From Nitrospirota bacterium (GTDB lineage: Bacteria > Nitrospirota > Nitrospiria > Nitrospirales > Nitrospiraceae): a DNA stretch of 54,083 nucleotides. The stretch lies in the NCBI GenBank assembly GCA_005887945.1, contig VBOL01000043.1:1-54083 (forward strand), in the 5' to 3' direction. The position numbers and the translations under genes are program-made. Below the pieces are notes generated by a model. That model searched no databases. It was not told the DNA's origin and worked only from the letters and a program-made list of their open reading frames with translations. Shown piece after piece: positions 11,830 through 39,080 of this stretch (position 1 is the stretch's first letter; each line of letters opens with the position of its first letter).

Positions 11830-12085
11830 CTGCGGAAATACTATGGTGGCACGCTAGGACCTCAATGGTCTGCACGTGTGGGACCTCAGAAGAACAATCC
11901 AGCAGGATGCTCAAAAAGGCGGATTTCTCACCCGCCCAACCCCCGCGCGCCAAGACGCGCCTTGTCCCAGGCAAGGCCGCAGGCGAGTCCAAACCGGAGG
12001 CGTACTCTCGGGGGTACGTTGAGGATTTCGACGAGCCGAGAACGACGTCGGAGGGATTTTTCAGCATCCTGCCCGAGCTCTGAGT
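11830..12085. repeat. nested MITE-like elements: 1B-type left end, then an insert bounded by GCAGGATGCTCAAAAA / TTTTTCAGCATCCTGC
   Basis: ggcacgctaggacctcaatggtctgcacgtgtgggacctcag parallels 10482-10520. The 16-nt TIR pair lies at about 11897 and about 12076. Confidence 0.6.
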
Positions 12086-21295: not shown

Positions 21296-21397
21296 CGTCT
21301 TCTATCCCCTTTACCCCAACTATCCCACTATCCCACTATCCCCTTACCCCGCTACCCCTTTACCCCTACCCCAACCCGATCCGGATTGAATTGCAAG
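21296..21397 (-). repeat. C4-tract intercistronic spacer (G-quadruplex motif on the sense strand between the two rSAM genes)
   Basis: + strand CCCCttaCCCCgctaCCCCtttaCCCCtaCCCC, i.e. minus strand GGGGtaGGGGtaaaGGGGtagcGGGGtaaGGGG. Confidence 0.65.
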
Positions 21398-23167
21398 TCA
21401 GATAACTTCCGGAGGCCGAACCGAGCGATGCTCGAACACCCGCTCCGCCTCTTCGATGCTCATTCCGTTATTCACCGTGTAGTAGTAGTCGAGGGCCAGG
21501 TCCCATTCGGGATTCTTATAGACCGTCACACCCCAGCGCTCCGGCTGCTTGGCCACCGGCGTGTGCTTGCTCAGGTCAAACGTGCCGAAGCCGAGCGAAT
21601 GTACGTGTTCTTTGTTTTGCTCCAGAAACTGCACCGACGACCAGGCTTCTTCTTTCGTTTCGCCAGGAAATCCAAAAAAGCCCATGCAGTGGTTCCAGAT
21701 GCCGACGTTGGCCGACATTTGCAGATGCTGCGTGATGACCTCCGTCGTCGTCGCCTTGTCCATTAGCTTCAGCACCCGCTCGTTCCCCGACTCGTAGCCG
21801 AAGTGGAGATAGCGGCAGCCGGAGTCTTTCGCATCCTGCCAGACCGTTTCATCCAGCAGGCTTTTCTCGAATCGCATATGGGTCGTCCAGATAATGTCCA
21901 TCTTCGAATCAATCAACCCGCGAGCCAGCTTGCGGAACAAGGCCGGCGGATAGGATTCGTCGGTAAAGTGGAAATGCTTGGCGCCGTACTTATTCTTCAA
22001 ATACCCGATCTCGTCAATGATTTCCTGGATCTTCTTCGTCCGGTAGCCCGCCGTATAGCCCTCGCCATGGTCGCAGAACTCGCAGCGGCCCCAGTAACAG
22101 CCTCTCGTCGCCAGATAGGGCAAGACTTTTATCGGCACGAAATACTTCTCTAGCGGCAGGCCGTCGAAGTCTGGCGGTGGCAGAGAGGCCATGTCTTCCG
22201 AGTAGCTGGTTGGCGACGTATGCACGCCGGTTTCGTCCTTATATATGGTGTTGGGCACGTCGGCGAGACTCCGCCTCGCCCCCACCGCAGACACCAGCTG
22301 CACAAACGCCGTCTCCCCTTCATAGACCACCGCACTGTCGAAGTATCGGAATAGTGGCGACTGAGGTAGCACATCGCGCAGGCGCGTGACCGTGTTGCCG
22401 CCGATCGTGACGTGAATGTGGGGGAAGTGCTGCTTGATGAGGGCACAGAAGGTCATAGAGGAGAACAGCTGCTGCTGCAAGACGATCGAGATGCCGATCA
22501 CGTCCGGCTGCTCCTTCTCGATCACCGGCTTCACCAGATGCTCGAACACGTCGCGATACACGTTCACCTGCGTATCGTGAATGGCATCCATCACCTCGGA
22601 CGAGGAAAAGACTTTGTACGACAGATCGGTTTCCATCGGCGGCATACAGACCCGGGCCGGGGCATAGACCATCGAGATCACGGAAGTGACCTCACGTAAT
22701 ACATTGATTGCCCACTCTAACTGATCGATATCGTAGAATGTTTCCCCTCTGATAATCGCCTTCGCCTTCTCCGCCTGCTTGATCAACTCATCGATCCGCT
22801 GCCTGGTCAGGTCGCAGAGCGCCAGCTGCAGATCCATCTCGTCGGCGCTCAGATCGCGCTTCTTCGACAGTTTGCGGAGCCGATCGAGCTGCTGCGGCAC
22901 CCGGCGCAGGACCTTCTTCAGGAAATCCTCGCTGAAGTACCAGTCGTACATTTCAAGGTTGATGTCTTTTTGGATGATCGTATGGCCGGCCTGCCGAAGG
23001 ACGGCGGTGAGGGAGGGAAGGCTGAGATACGGTTCGGAGGGATACCAGTCCGGCGGGAAGATCAGCATGACTTTCATCTTCTGGCCGCTGGTGGCTTCGG
23101 AAGTCTGGCGATGGAGCAGGATCAGTTCCTTGGAAGCCAGTTCGCCCTTCGAATACTCAATCCGCAT
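21398..23167 (-). CDS. B12-binding domain radical SAM protein (paralog 2)
   Basis: ORF 21398..23206. Start placed at MRIEYSKGE (23167) because this ATG and its 30 codons are conserved in the two upstream remnant copies. Alternative start MKVMLIFPP at 23077. Motif ATRGCYWGRCEFCDH. Confidence 0.85.
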   Translation of the reverse strand: MRIEYSKGELASKELILLHRQTSEATSGQKMKVMLIFPPDWYPSEPYLSLPSLTAVLRQAGHTIIQKDINLEMYDWYFSEDFLKKVLRRVPQQLDRLRKLSKKRDLSADEMDLQLALCDLTRQRIDELIKQAEKAKAIIRGETFYDIDQLEWAINVLREVTSVISMVYAPARVCMPPMETDLSYKVFSSSEVMDAIHDTQVNVYRDVFEHLVKPVIEKEQPDVIGISIVLQQQLFSSMTFCALIKQHFPHIHVTIGGNTVTRLRDVLPQSPLFRYFDSAVVYEGETAFVQLVSAVGARRSLADVPNTIYKDETGVHTSPTSYSEDMASLPPPDFDGLPLEKYFVPIKVLPYLATRGCYWGRCEFCDHGEGYTAGYRTKKIQEIIDEIGYLKNKYGAKHFHFTDESYPPALFRKLARGLIDSKMDIIWTTHMRFEKSLLDETVWQDAKDSGCRYLHFGYESGNERVLKLMDKATTTEVITQHLQMSANVGIWNHCMGFFGFPGETKEEAWSSVQFLEQNKEHVHSLGFGTFDLSKHTPVAKQPERWGVTVYKNPEWDLALDYYYTVNNGMSIEEAERVFEHRSVRPPEVI

Positions 23168-23295
23168 GAACCACGGCTCCTCTATCGACCGGCACCCTGA
23201 AACCATCAGAATGCCAAGGGGTTAGGCTAGCGAACGGTGTATTGTACGGGGGTGGAAGAAGGATATTCAAGGGCGGAAAAAGGTTAGGACACCCC
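23076..23295 (-). repeat. copy A (attached to the intact gene) of the triplicated block: rSAM codons 1-31 plus about 130 nt upstream
   Basis: Aligns by eye with 23916-24141 and 25425-25635. Similarity ends at ATCTTC(T/C)GGCC on the gene side. Confidence 0.8.
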
Positions 23296-23343
23296 ATGAA
23301 GCCGGTTTAGCCGGTATTCACGGCACAAGGGATGTGCCGTGTG

Positions 23344-23647
23344 TTATGAAAGGTCTGGCGAGGCACCACGCTTCGTATGCCAGAGGGCAAGTATTTCGAC
23401 CGTCATAGGATCGGAAATCACACGGTAGTACAAATAGTAATGGACGCGGTGAAGATGAATACGGCGGACATCGGCAAGCTTGACGTTCCGAGCCTGTGCC
23501 CCGATCGATGGTTGCGATGCAAGGAGTTGGAGTGCGCGCTCAAGCTCTACGGCAAATGCATCTGGAGCCTTCTATCCACCACTCGGCGGCTTCGACAATA
23601 GCTCGTGCGGCGCTGCTGACGATGCGGACGGGGAAGGGACCGTTCAC
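23344..23647 (-). pseudogene. ParE/RelE-type toxin, frameshifted
   Basis: Own translation: VNGPFPVRIVSSAARAIVEAAEWWIEGS, then a +1 shift near 23560-23575 into DAFAVELERALQLLASQPSIGAQARNVKLADVRRIHLHRVHYYLYYRVISDPMTVEILALWHTKRG. The GTG start overlaps the antitoxin stop (GTGA). Confidence 0.6.
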
Positions 23648-23861
23648 GATCGGCGAATCTGCTGCAGGACTTGTGACGCGCTTGTCGTCTCTCCTCGCTC
23701 GGCCTCCGCGATAGCTGCGAGGAGCTGGCCTCCTCCTCAGGTTTGAGTTCGAAGGTTTCATTACCTTCCGGGGCCAACACCGTCACAATAGCTCCTTCAG
23801 GGAGGCCCGTCGCATCAACCTTGATCGTCCCGCCGAGGACCTTTCCAGTGGTAATCAGCAT
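23644..23861 (-). pseudogene. cognate antitoxin, frameshifted
   Basis: MLITTGKVLGGTIKVDATGLPEGAIVTVLAPEGNETFELKPEEEA, then after a 1-nt shift near 23724-23730 the expected ending LLAAIAEAERGETTSASQVLQQIRRS-stop. Confidence 0.55.
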
Positions 23862-23878
23862 GACGGCATCCTAGCACT

Positions 23879-24013
23879 TCATAGAGAAGCCGTCCAACGT
23901 CCCATGCGATCTGCAACCTTTATCTTCCGGCCGCTGGTGGCTTCGGAGGTCTGGCGATGGAGCAGGATAAGTTCTTTGGAGGCCCGTTCGCCCTTCGAAT
24001 ACTCTATCCTCAT
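23879..24013 (-). pseudogene. 5-prime remnant of the rSAM gene (copy B): 30 conserved codons + 14 unrelated codons
   Basis: Own translation: MRIEYSKGERASKELILLHRQTSEATSGRKIKVADRMGRWTASL-stop. Confidence 0.7.
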
Positions 24014-24141
24014 GAAGCGCGGCTCCTCTATCGGACCGGCACCCTGAAATCATCAGAATGCCAAGGGGTTAGGCTAGCGAACGGTATATTGTACGGGCGC
24101 AGAAGAACGGGGGTCAAGGGCGGGAGAGCGGCAGGACACCC
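23916..24141 (-). repeat. copy B of the triplicated rSAM 5-prime/upstream block
   Basis: Near-identical to copy A over about 215 nt, including ccatcagaatgccaaggggttaggctagcgaacgg. Confidence 0.8.
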
Positions 24142-24225
24142 ACGTTGCTCCCGTGCTCCCGGAACGCGCACCCTCCGAAGGGCCTCGTTCGACGGCCGCA
24201 ATTGGAGCAACATGGGTGCCCTGCC
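24130..24225. repeat. rod hairpin 1 (GGCAGGACACCCACGTTGCTCC ... GGAGCAACATGGGTGCCCTGCC)
   Basis: 22-nt outer stem with 2 mismatches. The interior is also self-complementary (CCGGAACGCGCACCCT / AGGGCCTCGTTCGACGG). Confidence 0.65.
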
Positions 24226-24321
24226 TCGATGAAATTAAAATCGTACAAAAAGAGGGGGAAGAGAAAGGAAAGCAGCCAGGGTGCCCTCTTTGCTCGCAGG
24301 ACGCGCACGATGAAAGGGGGA

Positions 24322-24417
24322 GGAATGACACCCGTGCAGATCCCTTGCTCCCGGAGCGCGCACGATCAGAATGTGCTCGCTCGACGGCCGCAGTGGGACC
24401 AACACGGGTGCCATTCC
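24322..24417. repeat. rod hairpin 2 (GGAATGACACCCGTG ... CACGGGTGCCATTCC)
   Basis: Shares the internal motif TTGCTCCCGGA(A/G)CGCGCAC...CTCG(T)TCGACGGCCGCA with rod 1. Partial units lie at 24276-24320 and 24440-24545. Confidence 0.6.
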
Positions 24418-24685
24418 ATGAGAGGAGAAGCGAGCGAGCTTGGAAGGATCATTGATGCGCGCAGCCGAGGGCAGCCTTGGCCACTCCCCTGAAGAGAGGT
24501 AGAGCGAGGACGACCCTCGTTGGAGACGCGCACGATGGAGACCACCTAGTCGCCCCATGAGCGCATCGCGAACAGACGCGACGAAAATTTCTTATTGACA
24601 GGGCTGGGCGCGATCCGCAATCGTGCTGGCGTGCTGATTCTCCCCAGTGCGTAGATACCGGTAGACTGGAGTTTGTTGGGCGGGG

Positions 24686-25036
24686 ATGATGGAAATCAAA
24701 ATACTTCGGGATGCCGTGACCAGGCACGAGCTGAACGAAATGGCGAAGCAGCAGTTCGGAGATATGGTCAAGGCTGTCGTCGATGTGGAACAGGGTATTA
24801 TGGCGATCGGCGGAGAACTCCATTCGGACGAGGAGGCGATTCTCCTAGATCAGGGGTCTGTGCAAAAAAACTTATGGGGAATCAACCTCTACCCGGAGCG
24901 TCCGGTTCCGGAATGGATCGAGTTCGATTCCTTGATTAATGTGCGCCCGTCTGGAGGGAATCGTTCCCGCTACGTCGAAAGCGCCAAGATCCGTGACGCA
25001 GTCACCACAATTGTCAATCGATTGGTCGAGGGGTAG
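24686..25036 (+). CDS. conserved small protein (resembles DUF5674-type proteins)
   Basis: 116 aa ORF: MMEIKILRDAVTRHELNEMAKQQFGDMVKAVVDVEQGIMAIGGELHSDEE. Family recalled, not verified. Confidence 0.6.
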   Translation: MMEIKILRDAVTRHELNEMAKQQFGDMVKAVVDVEQGIMAIGGELHSDEEAILLDQGSVQKNLWGINLYPERPVPEWIEFDSLINVRPSGGNRSRYVESAKIRDAVTTIVNRLVEG

Positions 25037-25041
25037 GCGGC

Positions 25042-25371
25042 ATGTCACACGTCCATGCGGATCTCGCCGCCGGTCGATGGCAGACCTTGCCGCTCGTGGA
25101 ACAGCTGGCTAATGTCGGGAGCGATGTGGCGCGCGCGCATCGTTGGCATGGGAAAGATCCACTTCTTTCTGAAAAAGCGTTTATCCGCGCATTAGAGCTG
25201 CTCGACCTGACTATAGGGGATGATCGCTGGAAAGGTCGCAGGAAAGAACTCACACGTGTACGCGAGCTGCTCTGTGATGCGATGTTCGGGGGCTCCGCAT
25301 ACGGTAGCGATCTGGCCAGCCTGGATCGCTACTTCTACCATTTCGCCGTTGCGGCACGGGCCGGACGCTAA
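25042..25371 (+). CDS. hypothetical protein, partner of the preceding gene
   Basis: 109 aa ORF 6 nt downstream of the previous stop. All-helical pattern (LVEQLANVGSDVARA...RALELLDLTIGDDRW). Confidence 0.55.
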   Translation: MSHVHADLAAGRWQTLPLVEQLANVGSDVARAHRWHGKDPLLSEKAFIRALELLDLTIGDDRWKGRRKELTRVRELLCDAMFGGSAYGSDLASLDRYFYHFAVAARAGR

Positions 25372-25402
25372 CCCGCCAGGTCTCAGCAACACCCGTAGAG
25401 TT

Positions 25403-25516
25403 TCACCGTCTATTTTGTTTCCTGATCTTCCGGCCGCTGGTGGCTTCCCAGGTCTGGCGATGGAGCAGGATCAGTTCTTTGGAGGCCCGTTCGCCCTTGG
25501 AATACTCAACCCGCAT
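25403..25516 (-). pseudogene. 5-prime remnant of the rSAM gene (copy C): 30 conserved codons + 7 unrelated codons
   Basis: Own translation: MRVEYSKGERASKELILLHRQTWEATSGRKIRKQNRR-stop. Confidence 0.7.
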
Positions 25517-25635
25517 ACCGGCCTGCTCTCATATCCGCTGACTGACAAGAAACAGTCAGAAAGCCATGGGGTTACGGGGGCATTGTACGGGGCAGGGAGA
25601 AGGAGATGCAAGGGCGGGAAGGGAGTGGCCAGGAA
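25425..25635 (-). repeat. copy C of the triplicated rSAM 5-prime/upstream block (most diverged)
   Basis: The coding part is well conserved and the upstream part only partly (ccatggggttacggggg...caagggcgggaaggg). Confidence 0.7.
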
Positions 25636-25713
25636 CCTCCTTGCTCGCAGAACGCGCGGCCTAGGAAGGCCCTCGTTCGATGCGCGCAGTTGAGGGCAAC
25701 TTTGGCCACCCCC
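25621..25713. repeat. rod hairpin 3 (GTGGCCAGG ... TTTGGCCAC; core TTGCTCGCAGAACGCGCGGCCTAGGAAGGCCCTCGTTCGATGCGCGCA)
   Basis: Read directly. Preceded by the purine tract gggagaaggagatgcaagggcgggaaggg. Confidence 0.55.
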
Positions 25714-25756
25714 TCCAAATACTGGGGAGAGGAATAGAGAGAAGAGAGAAGAAATA

Positions 25757-25842
25757 CGGCCTGATGATTCCCTTTGCTCGCGCAACGCGCGGCCTCAGAA
25801 GGCCCTCGTTGAACGCGCGCACGATGGGAAAACGCCAGGCCG
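25757..25842. repeat. rod hairpin 4 (CGGCCTG ... CCAGGCCG; core TTTGCTCGCGCAACGCGCGGCCTCAGAAGGCCCTCGTTGAACGCGCGCA)
   Basis: Read directly. Preceded by the purine tract ggggagaggaatagagagaagagagaagaaa. Confidence 0.55.
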
Positions 25843-25965
25843 CCCTTTCCAACACCGGGAGGGGGATGAAGAGAAGATAGGGCTACATCGCTCGCCAGCC
25901 CTCACCTACTCGTACCCCGCCCGGTGCGCCGTGGAAACTTTGAGGCGGCAACTGCTCGGCAGGGC

Positions 25966-25994
25966 TTGACTTCCACGCGATATTCCACTATTCT
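25966..25994 (+). promoter_or_regulatory. candidate sigma70 promoter of the 4-gene operon (TTGACT-N17-TATTCT)
   Basis: TTGACT at 25966-71, 17-nt spacer, TATTCT at 25989-94. An AAGGA RBS precedes the ATG at 26024. Confidence 0.4.
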
Positions 25995-26023
25995 GAAATC
26001 CAATCAATAAGGAATAATGGAAT

Positions 26024-26380
26024 ATGGCAAAAGCGCATGTAACAACGACCCACGGGGCAAAGGTCACGATCGAAGGGACTCCGGAAGAGGTTGCTTTTCT
26101 GGTCTCACGACTTGAAGGGGGACCGCCGCCTTCTCATAGAAAGACCAAGTTCTCAGCTAATAAAAAAAGTCCACGACCTACTCCGACAGGTTTGATATCG
26201 GATCTTATCGACGGCGGCTTCTTCAAAAAGCCAAAAGAGCTAAGCGGGATAAAGCTTGCCATTGAAGAGCAAGGCCACTACTACCCGATAACGTCCTTAT
26301 CGCCGACGTTGCTGCGTCTTGTCAGGAAACGTCAGCTACGACGGATAAAAGAGCAGAAGCGTTGGCTCTACGTTAACTGA
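26024..26380 (+). CDS. orphan protein P1: small N-domain + basic linker + C-terminal winged-helix-like module
   Basis: 118 aa. C-terminus LISDLIDGGFFKKPKELSGIKLAIEEQGHYYPITSLSPTLLRLVRKRQLRRIKEQKRWLYV. The stop overlaps the next start (TGATG). Confidence 0.7.
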   Translation: MAKAHVTTTHGAKVTIEGTPEEVAFLVSRLEGGPPPSHRKTKFSANKKSPRPTPTGLISDLIDGGFFKKPKELSGIKLAIEEQGHYYPITSLSPTLLRLVRKRQLRRIKEQKRWLYVN

Positions 26381-29663: not shown

Positions 29664-29725
29664 ATATCATTTGAAGAGGCTGACACCGGCTGTCCAGGCT
29701 GGTATACTTGCGAGCAAGGTGGTCC

Positions 29726-29926
29726 ATGAGCAAAGTCGAAGCAATCGAACAGCAGATTGAGAAGCTTTCTCCCGCAGAACTTACGGCGTTCCGTTCCTGG
29801 TACGCTGCGTTCGATGCCGAGGCCTGGGATCGCCAGTTTGAGGCCGATGTCCAGGCGGGCAAACTCGATGCGATGGCTGACAAGGCGCTGCGTGGCCACA
29901 CCTCCGGCCAGTCCACGAAGCTTTGA
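29726..29926 (+). CDS. putative antitoxin (small helical protein)
   Basis: MSKVEAIEQQIEKLSPAELTAFRSWYAAFDAEAWDRQFEADVQAGKLD. AAGGTGG RBS. 4-nt overlap with the next gene. Confidence 0.6.
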   Translation: MSKVEAIEQQIEKLSPAELTAFRSWYAAFDAEAWDRQFEADVQAGKLDAMADKALRGHTSGQSTKL

Positions 29927-30177
29927 TTCATCATGCCTCACCAGAGTTTTGGTCCTGCTACAATGCCCTCCCCGCTCCAATCCGTGAACAGGCCGACAAA
30001 GCTTTTGCACTCCTGAAGGCGACCCCGCAACATCCGTCCTTGCATTTCAAAAAGGTAGGGCGATACTACTCCGCCCGTGTGAGCCTCAATTATCGAGCGG
30101 TGGGAGTTGAAGCCACGGACGGAATCGTGTGGTTCTGGATTGGCACACACGCAGACTACGACAAGTTAATTCGCTAG
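29923..30177 (+). CDS. putative ParE/RelE-like toxin
   Basis: 84 aa. HPSLHFKKVGRYYSARVSLNYRAVGVEATDGIVWFWIGTHADYDKLI pattern recalled from TA-type pairs. TTG start. Confidence 0.6.
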   Translation: MIHHASPEFWSCYNALPAPIREQADKAFALLKATPQHPSLHFKKVGRYYSARVSLNYRAVGVEATDGIVWFWIGTHADYDKLIR

Positions 30178-30314
30178 CCCATTTCCGGCGCGTGGCGGAG
30201 ATCTGGTTCATCTGGTTTCTTCGGTCTGTCTCGTTTGTGTGGTTCGACGAACGAGCGAGACAGGACAGACCCGCGCCCCAGATAGACTGCCTCTGAATCG
30301 CCCTCTCCTCACAC
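30178..30314 (+). repeat. HHT repeat (head 5-prime-truncated; begins directly after the toxin stop codon)
   Basis: cccatttccggcgcgtggcggagatctggttcatctggt...ccagatagactgcctctgaatcgccctctcctcacac. Confidence 0.85.
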
Positions 30315-31851: not shown

Positions 31852-31952
31852 GGGCAAGTCCTGCAATCCAAAATTTCGGCACAAAACGGGGACAGGCTAC
31901 TTTTCCGGAAAGAAAACGGTGTCAGGAACCATTTCGCGGTACGTGGCGGGCC
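31852..31952 (+). repeat. three tandem HHT head variants, no hairpin
   Basis: gggcaagtcctgcaatccaaaatttcggc / aaaacggggacaggctacttttccgg / aaagaaaacggtgtcaggaaccatttcgcggtacgtggcgggcc. Confidence 0.7.
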
Positions 31953-34905: not shown

Positions 34906-35488
34906 AACAAAAAGGGGACAAGCTACTTTTCTGGAGTTCAGTCGCATGGGCGCAAGGTGGACAAGATATCGGAAACCGATGCGATCTGGGCCTGCCACTC
35001 TGGTGAGCCAATCGCACGTGAGGAGCGGCACGCACTGGTTATCGTCCACTCGCTGACAACGAATCCCTACTGCGCATAATTCTCGACGACCTGCAGCGTG
35101 CGAACTTGCGCCTCGTCTGGGTCAAGCCCGACATCGCGAAGGGCACGTCGCTGGCGCATGAGGTCCCAGCACTGATCCAGTTCGACCTGGACTTGCGCGA
35201 GCCGCTTACGATCGGCTTGTACGATCGGCTTGGTGGAGTGCCCTCTGCTCGTACAATCGGTGTTCCTCTGCGACAAGGTGCTGAATATGATTGAGGACCG
35301 GCTGATCTTCGCCTTGATTCTCCACGAGAGCCTCCTCCAACGCGGATGTGATCGGAACGGTCAGGCTTAGATGTTACGCCCACCCGAAACCGCGGTCAAC
35401 CGATGCTCTGGCCAACATGATGACCCCGGCGTAGGTTGCCAGAAGAAAGAGAATGTGCCCGAAACTATTTCGCGGCGCGTGGCAGGCC
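34904..35488 (+). repeat. segmental duplicate 1 of the DUF2630 cassette (alt head ... solo head)
   Basis: Aligns by eye end to end with 38501-39080. Starts ggaacaaaaaggggacaagctacttttctggag and ends gaatgtgcccgaaactatttcgcggcgcgtggcaggcc. Confidence 0.8.
35067..35325 (-). pseudogene. DUF2630-family gene inactivated by a 13-bp tandem duplication
   Basis: VENQGEDQPVLNHIQHLVAEEHRLYEQRALHQADRTSRS-stop. + strand cttACGATCGGCTTGTACGATCGGCTTGg versus a single copy in the paralog. The downstream frame matches the DUF2630 C-terminus. Confidence 0.75.
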
Positions 35489-38500: not shown

Positions 38501-39080
38501 GAAACAAAAATGGGACTGGCTACTTTTCTGGAGTGTTTCGTGGTCGGCCGCGTGGGCTCAAGGTGGGCAAGATGTTGGAAACCGATGCGATCAGGGCCTG
38601 CCACTCTGGTGAGCCAATCGCACGTTAGGGGCGGCACGCACTGGCTATCGTCCGCTCGCTGACGACCAATCCCTACTGCTCATAATTCTCGACGACCTGC
38701 GGCGGGCGAACTTGCGCATCGTCCGGGTCAAGCCCGACGTCGCGAAGGGCACGTCGCTGGCGCAAGAGGTCCCAACACTGATCCAGTTCCACCTGGACTT
38801 GCACGAGTCGTTCACGATCGGCTTGGGGGTGTGCCCTTTGCTCGTGCAATCGGTGTTCCTCTGCGACAAGGCGCTGAATATGATTGAGGACCGGCTGATC
38901 TTCCACTTGATTCTCCATGAGAGCCTCCTCCCACGCGGATGTGATGGGAACGGTCAGGCTTTGATGTTACGCCCACCCTAAACTGAGGTCAATCGATGTT
39001 CTGCCAACATGATGACCTCGACGTAGGTTGTCAGAAGAAAGAAAATGTGCCAGAAACCATTTCGCGGCGAGTGGCGGGCC
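38501..39080 (+). repeat. segmental duplicate 2 of the DUF2630 cassette (intact gene)
   Basis: See 34904-35488. Confidence 0.8.
38673..38918 (-). CDS. DUF2630 family protein
   Basis: 81 aa. LVAEEHRLHEQ...VELDQCWDLLRQRRALRDVGLDPDDAQVRPPQVVENY is a typical family pattern. Confidence 0.8.
   Translation of the reverse strand: MENQVEDQPVLNHIQRLVAEEHRLHEQRAHPQADRERLVQVQVELDQCWDLLRQRRALRDVGLDPDDAQVRPPQVVENYEQ

Follow-up and report, generated by a model that had tools for sequence, protein, structure and literature searches.

Staphylococcal cassette chromosome (SCC) elements at orfX/rlmH and islands at tRNA genes grow by tandem accretion at one attachment site, and Campbell-type events, in which DNA integrates and is excised by homology between direct repeats, belong, together with gene conversion, to general recombination. 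The dusA-specific elements and SXT at prfC integrate inside a conserved gene's 5' end, and the displaced original 5' end stays behind as a direct repeat (PMC8409611). Here, we describe a locus in a Nitrospirota bacterium (assembly GCA_005887945.1, contig VBOL01000043.1; the stretch of 54,083 nt analysed is referred to as the window) in which the 5' end of rSAM1, a gene for a B12-binding radical S-adenosylmethionine (SAM) protein, is present three times in direct orientation. Copy A belongs to the intact gene, whereas copies B and C are truncated and separated from it and from each other by two small modules, a toxin-antitoxin (TA) pair and a two-gene module (module 2). We conclude that the feature is an old recombination scar at a genuine border of accessory DNA, and not an active integration site.

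Like the dusA and prfC elements, the inserts of this locus lie in the 5' end of a conserved gene and are flanked by direct repeats of that end. The end of the gene is also kept as in those elements, since copy A combines, at the sequence level, a promoter-like site and a ribosome-binding site with a start of 30 codons in frame. However, dusA and prfC elements measure 10-100 kb, have short attachment cores and carry their own tyrosine integrase and directionality factor beside the attachment site, whereas here the inserts, at 0.6 and 1.3 kb, have no gene for mobility, the repeats are 220-540 bp long and a nearby recombinase was not found. It is by the defining integrase that the locus falls outside this class. 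With SCC elements and tRNA islands it shares the direct repeats of a gene end that part successive modules at an accessory border, and some modules of those systems are likewise without a recombinase. They differ in targeting the 3' end of the gene, in their short repeats and in their known recombinase (Ccr or a tyrosine integrase), none of which was seen here.

The start of rSAM1 is present three times

The copies were defined by repeat search, blastn and three-way alignment. By blastn, copy B is 86% identical to copy A (E=2e-76) and copy C 76% (E=2e-38); no copy beyond A, B and C was found in the 54-kb window by repeat search and blastn. Every copy has a sigma70-like promoter, followed by a conserved 5' untranslated region (UTR) of ∼75 nt and a GAGGAG ribosome-binding site; the promoter-like sequence of copy C (TTGCAT-18-TACAAT) was read directly off the sequence. 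The repeated block is thus the full 5' module of the rSAM gene, i.e. promoter, UTR, ribosome-binding site and N-terminal extension. The three copies share their end, GGCC(A/G)GAAGAT, and in the B-type copies of relatives the similarity extends 5 nt more, up to GATGAAGG. In the window, the core GGCCRGAAGAT was found only in the three copies and in its inverted partner (see later in the text).

The peptide of copy A carries GELASK and SGQK. Over the 30 codons, copies A and B differ by 6 synonymous and 2 non-synonymous codons, and copies A and C by 4 of each kind. The residues of the genus consensus are present in B and C, and A is the derived copy (R10L, R29Q). Judging from the sequence, C and B are relics in this genome, and A is probably the working copy.

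A sequence-only reading of this DNA had described the three direct copies, the 30-codon frames and peptides of B and C within open reading frames (ORFs) of 44 and 37 amino acids, the divergence right after GGCC(A/G)GAAGAT, and two intervals holding a decayed ParE-type TA pair and a two-gene module on the + strand. All these elements were recovered, the copies by repeat search and blastn, the peptides by translation, the point of divergence by alignment and the modules by Pfam and tblastn (Table 1).

Because B and C resemble the gene-attached copies of other strains, as the parts of a chimeric assembly might, strain variants of a single 5' region could have been collapsed or mis-joined. However, an independent ENA contig obtained with MEGAHIT (L081) is 100% identical to positions 25827-21431 of the window (4397 nt, gap-free), covering C, B and A, and a contig from a different sample (L082) matches the window at 99.96% identity over copy A and a stretch of the TA module. 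The triplication is therefore no quirk of this assembly. Moreover, these junctions are met again in many genomes and samples, and we consider an artefact next to excluded.

Table 1. Features of the rSAM1 border and of the adjoining variable region (window coordinates unless a locus is named)
Feature	Position	Strand	Remarks
rSAM1, B12-binding radical SAM gene	21398..23167	-	Pfam Radical_SAM + B12-binding; start MRIEYSK
Inverted repeat GGCCAGAAGAT-N13-ATCTTCCCGCC	23052..23086	.	spans codons 28-39
Copy A	23076-23295	-	on intact rSAM1: promoter, 5'UTR, ribosome-binding site, codons 1-30; blastn range 23070-23295
Copy A promoter-like TTGAAT-18-TACAAT	23270-23241	-	sequence motif
Decayed ParDE-type TA module	23347..23861	-	tblastn with intact L059 pair
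Antitoxin of TA module	~23861-23647	-	frameshift near 23727
ParE remnant of TA module	~23647-23347	-	frameshift near 23575
Copy B	23916-24141	-	complete 5' module, cut after codon 30-32, reads into TA module; blastn range 23908-24141
Copy B ORF, 44 aa	23879-24013	-	contains MRIEYSKGERASKELILLHRQTSEATSGRK
Copy B promoter-like TTGACC-18-TACAAT	24117-24088	-	sequence motif
Three 'pal' hairpins, ~95 nt each	24130-24225, 24322-24417, ~24426-24545	-	upstream of copy B
Module 2	24686..25371	+	two-gene module
DUF5674 protein gene of module 2	24686-25036	+	Pfam
109-aa ORF of module 2	25042-25371	+	ORF
Copy C	25425-25635	-	complete 5' module, cut after codon 30, antisense into module 2; blastn range 25425-25620
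Copy C ORF, 37 aa	25403-25516	-	contains MRVEYSKGERASKELILLHRQTWEATSGRK
Two 'pal' hairpins	25622-25715, 25765-25840	-	upstream of copy C
Array repeat starts	~27911, 30178, 33565, 34066, 36757, 38327, 39611, 43498, 44832, 47879, 49285, 51343
125-nt hairpin repeat sites	window 11971-12071; L002 9251-9376; L017 3270-3394; many other loci

The duplicated codons form an N-terminal extension

Nitrospira homologues of rSAM1 have 625-635 amino acids and all begin MR[IV]EY[ST]KGERASKELILLHRQTSEATSGRKMKV. Coding periodicity is evident in their first 30 codons (entropy 0.46/0.22/1.02 for the three codon positions in 77 genes), and the homology to the adjacent paralogue rSAM2 starts exactly at codon 31. 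Both observations point to a translated, lineage-specific N-terminal extension that lies ahead of the enzyme core and is conserved across Nitrospira. At codon 31, 75 genes have ATG and 2 have GTG; it is possible that this codon acts as an internal start, or that a DNA-level site is located there. Rfam returned nothing relevant, and no known riboswitch or leader, for the whole window at the gathering threshold or for positions 22900-26100 at E<=1, and no tRNA genes were found in the window.

At its other end, rSAM1 is cut short. Relative to the otherwise identical L081, the window is without 68 bp at 21430/21431, and the radical SAM protein has here 589 amino acids (from the MRIEY start) versus 634, with the tail ...VFEHRSVRPPEVI (window 21377-21431). 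The spacer to the second radical SAM gene is also different from that of L081. The 68-bp deletion may mark a pseudogene or a strain variant.

The inserted modules

The pair in the first interval has the organization of a ParDE type II TA system, with a predicted ParE domain and a small antitoxin encoded upstream. The orthologous toxin of L059 matches PF05016 (E=9e-13), and the window pair aligns to the L059 pair with one frameshift per gene; the frameshifted sequence is identical in L081. Module 2 was found beside the rSAM gene, with 89-96% identity, in L002, L004, L005, L009, L011 and L087, and both of its genes were also called beside the rSAM gene in L088. The TA module has its own promoter-like sequence (TTGGAC-17-TAGGAT) and so has module 2, where it was read directly off the sequence. 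The promoter of copy B is directed into the TA pair, and that of copy C runs antisense into module 2. In L002 and L007, a ParE-like pair by the rSAM gene replaces most of the first TA module. This pair aligns at 75-79%, in inverted orientation, to window positions ∼29715-30181, where it abuts an array repeat.

Two old junctions are shared among relatives

For comparison, we used 80 Nitrospira loci, took the 10 kb upstream of the rSAM gene and clustered the ORFs of at least 150 amino acids. The 357 upstream ORFs fell into 283 clusters, while downstream the genes keep their order (second radical SAM gene, PhzF-like, zinc-type alcohol dehydrogenase, CBS, MoCF). With a variable upstream and a syntenic downstream side, the rSAM start is therefore the fixed edge of a hypervariable region genus-wide. 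A profile of the block detected extra upstream copies in ∼16 of 75 loci, as well as in L081, L084, L087 and L088; many genomes have a single copy.

The truncated copies form four junction classes. In the B-type class, the copy runs to GATGAAGG and is followed by the promoter region of the ParDE pair. This junction is accompanied by a recognizable spare copy in five loci (the window, L007, L059, L002 and L061) and reduced to a copy-tail remnant of varying length in L051, L058 and L024; in L036 there is no copy tail, and the hairpin element directly abuts the TA pair. Altogether, the junction between B and the TA pair is common to at least 7 genomes across the genus, with 83-95% protein identity, and it probably goes back to one old event followed by differing 5' deletions. 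In the C-type class, the copy runs to GAAGAT and is followed by 19 nt of filler and then by the inverted module 2. This junction occurs in at least 6 loci (window/L081, L002, L009, L084, L087 and L088); in L009 a secondary deletion has cut the copy back to codon 23, L011 has lost the inside of copy C but not its two ends, and L004 is cleanly without copy C. L087 and L088 are without the TA module. The third class is a 60-codon fragment in L028, and the fourth comprises copies broken at codon 13, described below.

These comparisons bear on several points of the sequence-only reading. Its left edge of accessory DNA agrees with the upstream diversity and downstream synteny of the 80 genomes, and the relatives with an uninterrupted rSAM locus that it called for were found, with many single-copy genomes and inserts that are polymorphic. 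The sharing of both junctions contradicts recent successive integrations in this genome. Its proposal of successive site-specific integrations, each bringing a replacement end, stands in part: the replacement end is coherent, being a real 5' module, and the inserts are polymorphic, but the integrations are not recent, and no recombinase was found in the window ORFs scanned or by a motif screen of the 10 kb upstream in relatives.

We also considered that one junction derives from the other, and rejected it, as the cargo flanks (the cargo being the inserted module) have no significant local similarity (1372 of 2000 shuffles gave an equal result). A metagenome scan for GAAGAT followed by a base other than G yielded no new cargo type and one additional C-type contig; only two cargo types are found at the codon 30-32 site in >90 loci. 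The scan also gave a 24-nt exact match in two contigs. This match to the copy tail (GAAGCCACCAGCGGCCGGAAGAT) lies in an intergenic spacer of L083 (6910-6933) and of L085 (1206-1229). It was discarded as a new junction, the contigs being acidobacterial and ∼0.1 such matches being expected by chance (a rough value that assumes ∼10^12 bases), and it is probably a coincidence.

The spare copies decay and recombine with each other

Outside the window, the spare copies bear many lesions. In 8-9 genomes, they are interrupted at codon 13 by a 125-nt hairpin repeat, and most of the interrupted copies are B-type derivatives. Others have a stop codon (L061), the changes Y5F or Y5S, or partial to complete deletions. 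The 125-nt long-hairpin repeat itself is bounded by terminal inverted repeats (CAGGATGCTGAAAAAG...CTTTTTGAGCATCCTG) and is often met between genes in Nitrospira.

Spare copies could be retained for a function, as a leader or micro-ORF peptide, as a precursor of ribosomally synthesized and post-translationally modified peptide (RiPP) type for the neighbouring radical SAM enzymes, or as portable promoters for the cargo. The ORFs of B and C are indeed intact and differ from A mostly at synonymous positions, both copies have promoter-like elements and a ribosome-binding site, and B is directed into the TA operon. However, C runs antisense to its cargo, promoter-like sequences of their own are present in the TA pair and module 2, and the tails of the two ORFs are read-through into the TA promoter region or filler, and not conserved peptides. 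The mostly synonymous differences are explained by descent from, or refreshment by, functional gene starts. The maintained micro-ORF or leader that the sequence-only reading gave as its alternative is contradicted by the insertions, stop, Y5F/Y5S changes and deletions of the other genomes. Likewise, the locus does not have the make-up of a RiPP precursor beside a radical SAM maturase. A retained function is thus very unlikely.

The direct repeats recombine with each other, with conversion, mosaics, cargo loss and loss or decay of spare copies as the outcome. In L059, the duplication measures 539 bp (226 bp in the window) and its copies are 98% identical, all 11 differences lying within the last 38 nt, which is the pattern expected if gene conversion did not reach the edge of homology. 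L087, whose rSAM protein is 97% identical to that of the window, has copy C, module 2 and one gene-attached copy. The latter is mosaic: its promoter is B-like, its UTR C-like and its coding sequence A-like. In L084, the C-type junction is joined to a B-like copy. The 3' flank of the TA pair varies as well.

Origin of the truncated copies

The explanation that we prefer, with even confidence, is that of old insertions of a duplicative kind, which brought a spare 5' module with them, were recombined in by general homologous recombination and were later reshaped. At least twice, and long ago, a DNA segment with its own copy of the 5' module, bearing the ParDE pair in one case and the DUF5674 pair in the other, would have recombined into the resident 5' module. 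The likeliest route would be a Campbell-type single crossover of a circular segment through 220-540 bp of homology by the general recombination of the host. The product would consist of an upstream copy that has its promoter but is cut off at codon 30-32, followed by the cargo and then by a complete copy on the gene; the position of the break may be biased by the palindrome described below or by selection against longer fragments. What is observed is the anatomy, the coding status, how old and how widespread the junctions are, and that the copies recombine; a circular intermediate, and homologous over site-specific recombination for the primary insertion, are what we infer. The locus resembles Campbell-type products in its long flanking direct repeats, in the mosaic or homogenized copies that differ only at the edge of homology and in the recurrent loss of inserts and repeats. 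Such recombination explains spread and loss, but neither the first joining of a truncated start to cargo nor the 5-nt spacing of the junctions.

The position of the breaks deserves attention in this respect. The truncated copies stop in the left arm or the spacer of an inverted repeat that spans codons 28-39 and has 8-10 of its 11 positions matched in all 77 genes. Among these genes, no covariation was seen in the repeat, and RNAalifold gave -1.8 kcal/mol; with so weak a fold and no covariation, we claim no selected RNA structure at the break.

Several facts weigh against general recombination as the sole agent. In three of four genes that were checked, the repeat, in the form GGCCGGAAGAT-N13-ATCTTCCCGCC, is the sole 10/11 inverted repeat over the 1.9 kb of the gene, and the synonymous sites near it (CGG AAG ATG, ATC TTC) are unusually conserved. 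The TA junction, after GATGAAGG, and the module-2 junction, after GAAGAT, are just 5 nt apart, while their cargo sides are unrelated; a pair of junctions at a conserved inverted repeat would have the look expected of a site-specific core. Moreover, neither a circular form nor the arrangement of a first-step donor was seen, and the primary joining still requires one illegitimate step that leaves no testable trace.

One may accordingly propose that cassettes without an integrase integrate site-specifically at this codon 28-39 core by a recombinase encoded elsewhere, each cassette bringing a replacement promoter and N-terminus in the manner of the elements that target dusA and prfC. The two junctions appear independent, the synonymous sites of the arms are conserved, and relatives have single-copy sites that look 'empty', all of which fits. 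However, other breakpoints occur at codons 13, 23 and 60, the 5' limit of the repeat is inconstant, and the cargo sides have no arm-like similarity. In 16 of the 77 genes, F-to-Y codons disrupt the repeat, which shows no compensatory change, and the count of cargo types, to which the metagenome scan added none, stays at two. No recombinase domain was found with Pfam in the modules or in the scanned ORFs, which are a part of those of the window, and a screen limited to motifs detected no tyrosine or serine recombinase in the 357 upstream ORFs within 10 kb in the 80 relatives. The range of this search, a 10-kb motif screen in relatives and a partial Pfam scan of the window, is a caveat for the preference of homologous recombination. 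We regard integration at such a core as unlikely, although to be taken seriously.

In another proposal, the truncated copies are trimmed remains of a second copy of the locus, whole or partial (a tandem duplication or an imported segment ending in the gene), the 'cargo' is the native upstream neighbourhood, and deletion endpoints are favoured at the palindrome near codon 30-32. The breakpoints vary, many deletion sizes are documented, the 60-codon fragment of L028 has almost no cargo, and in L024, L036 and L051 the TA pair appears as an ordinary first cassette upstream of hairpin and promoter. On the other hand, no second copy of the cargo was found upstream of any spare copy, where a simple tandem duplication would place one, comparison of L059 with itself gave the 539-bp repeat only, and an extra loss step would be required in every lineage. 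This origin seems improbable to us, and old duplicative insertion through general recombination remains our preferred account.

Hairpins and array repeats of the variable region

Two families of structured repeats accompany the border. The first, which we call 'pal', sits at -110 to -200 from the rSAM ATG in most genomes, directly upstream of the promoter. Its orientation is always the same, it is often in tandem, and it has 102 matches upstream versus 6 downstream. Compensatory changes were seen in 11 of 19 predicted pairs; the inner core ACTGCGCGCRTCSAACGAGG ... CGCGCGTTSYGCGAGCA is conserved, while the outer stems covary. There is no Rfam match. In copy A of the window, the upstream 'pal' is reduced to its final ∼12 nt. 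The second is a composite imperfect palindrome of ∼130-150 nt, present in at least 12 same-orientation copies between small gene modules (window 27911-51472), which include GNAT, cupin, CMD and a second ParE-like pair. Close relatives (L002, L003, L004, L010 and L011) have modules of this array in common with the window, but ordered differently. The left motif of the array repeat, CATTTCGCGGCGCGTGGCGG, is also present by itself where modules end (near 35486 and 39078).

A further motif, AAAA(G/T)GGGACNNGCTACTTTT, is confined to the variable region (window 31889-31904, 34915-34930 and 38512-38527), with 3 occurrences in the window versus 0.26 expected and, across loci, 21 upstream versus 0 downstream. 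We rejected GGGACNNGCTACTTTT as a junction signature, as it follows a truncated copy in L028 only (the 60-codon copy).

The arrangement recalls integrons and clusters of attC sites lacking an integrase (CALIN), in that small modules, TA pairs among them, stand at the start of a shuffled cassette array with same-orientation structured repeats. In Nitrospira, only two CALIN elements were reported, both in Ca. N. inopinata (PMC9024848). However, no intI was found here, and it is the rSAM gene that occupies the position beside the array. The modules also have their own promoters and are in mixed orientation, and insertion at attI duplicates no 220 bp. As judged by eye, neither the array repeats nor 'pal' can be taken for attC: the ∼130-nt repeats have no outer RYYYAAC/GTTRRRY boxes, and 'pal' shows an inner AAC/GTT pairing but variable outer stems. 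The gene start, the 'pal' hairpins and the array repeats might still form together a cassette-capture platform, with a recombinase encoded elsewhere and the codon 28-39 inverted repeat as attachment site. We think this quite doubtful; were it true, every capture would have to bring a spare promoter and N-terminus.

Significance for Nitrospira

Nitrospira are the main nitrite oxidisers and the complete ammonia oxidisers. In these bacteria, the locus is a genus-wide recombination hot spot with the 5' end of a conserved B12-radical-SAM gene as its anchor. This border gene outlasts repeated insertions in that it keeps, or is given, a spare promoter and N-terminus. If general recombination alone is at work, this would be a clear case of direct repeats letting small modules such as TA pairs come and go between strains. 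It is also a place to seek an uncharacterised cassette-exchange mechanism, for which the candidate parts are 'pal', the repeats of the array and the inverted repeat where the copies break off; the 'pal' hairpins and the adjoining cassette-like array are the parts most worth following.

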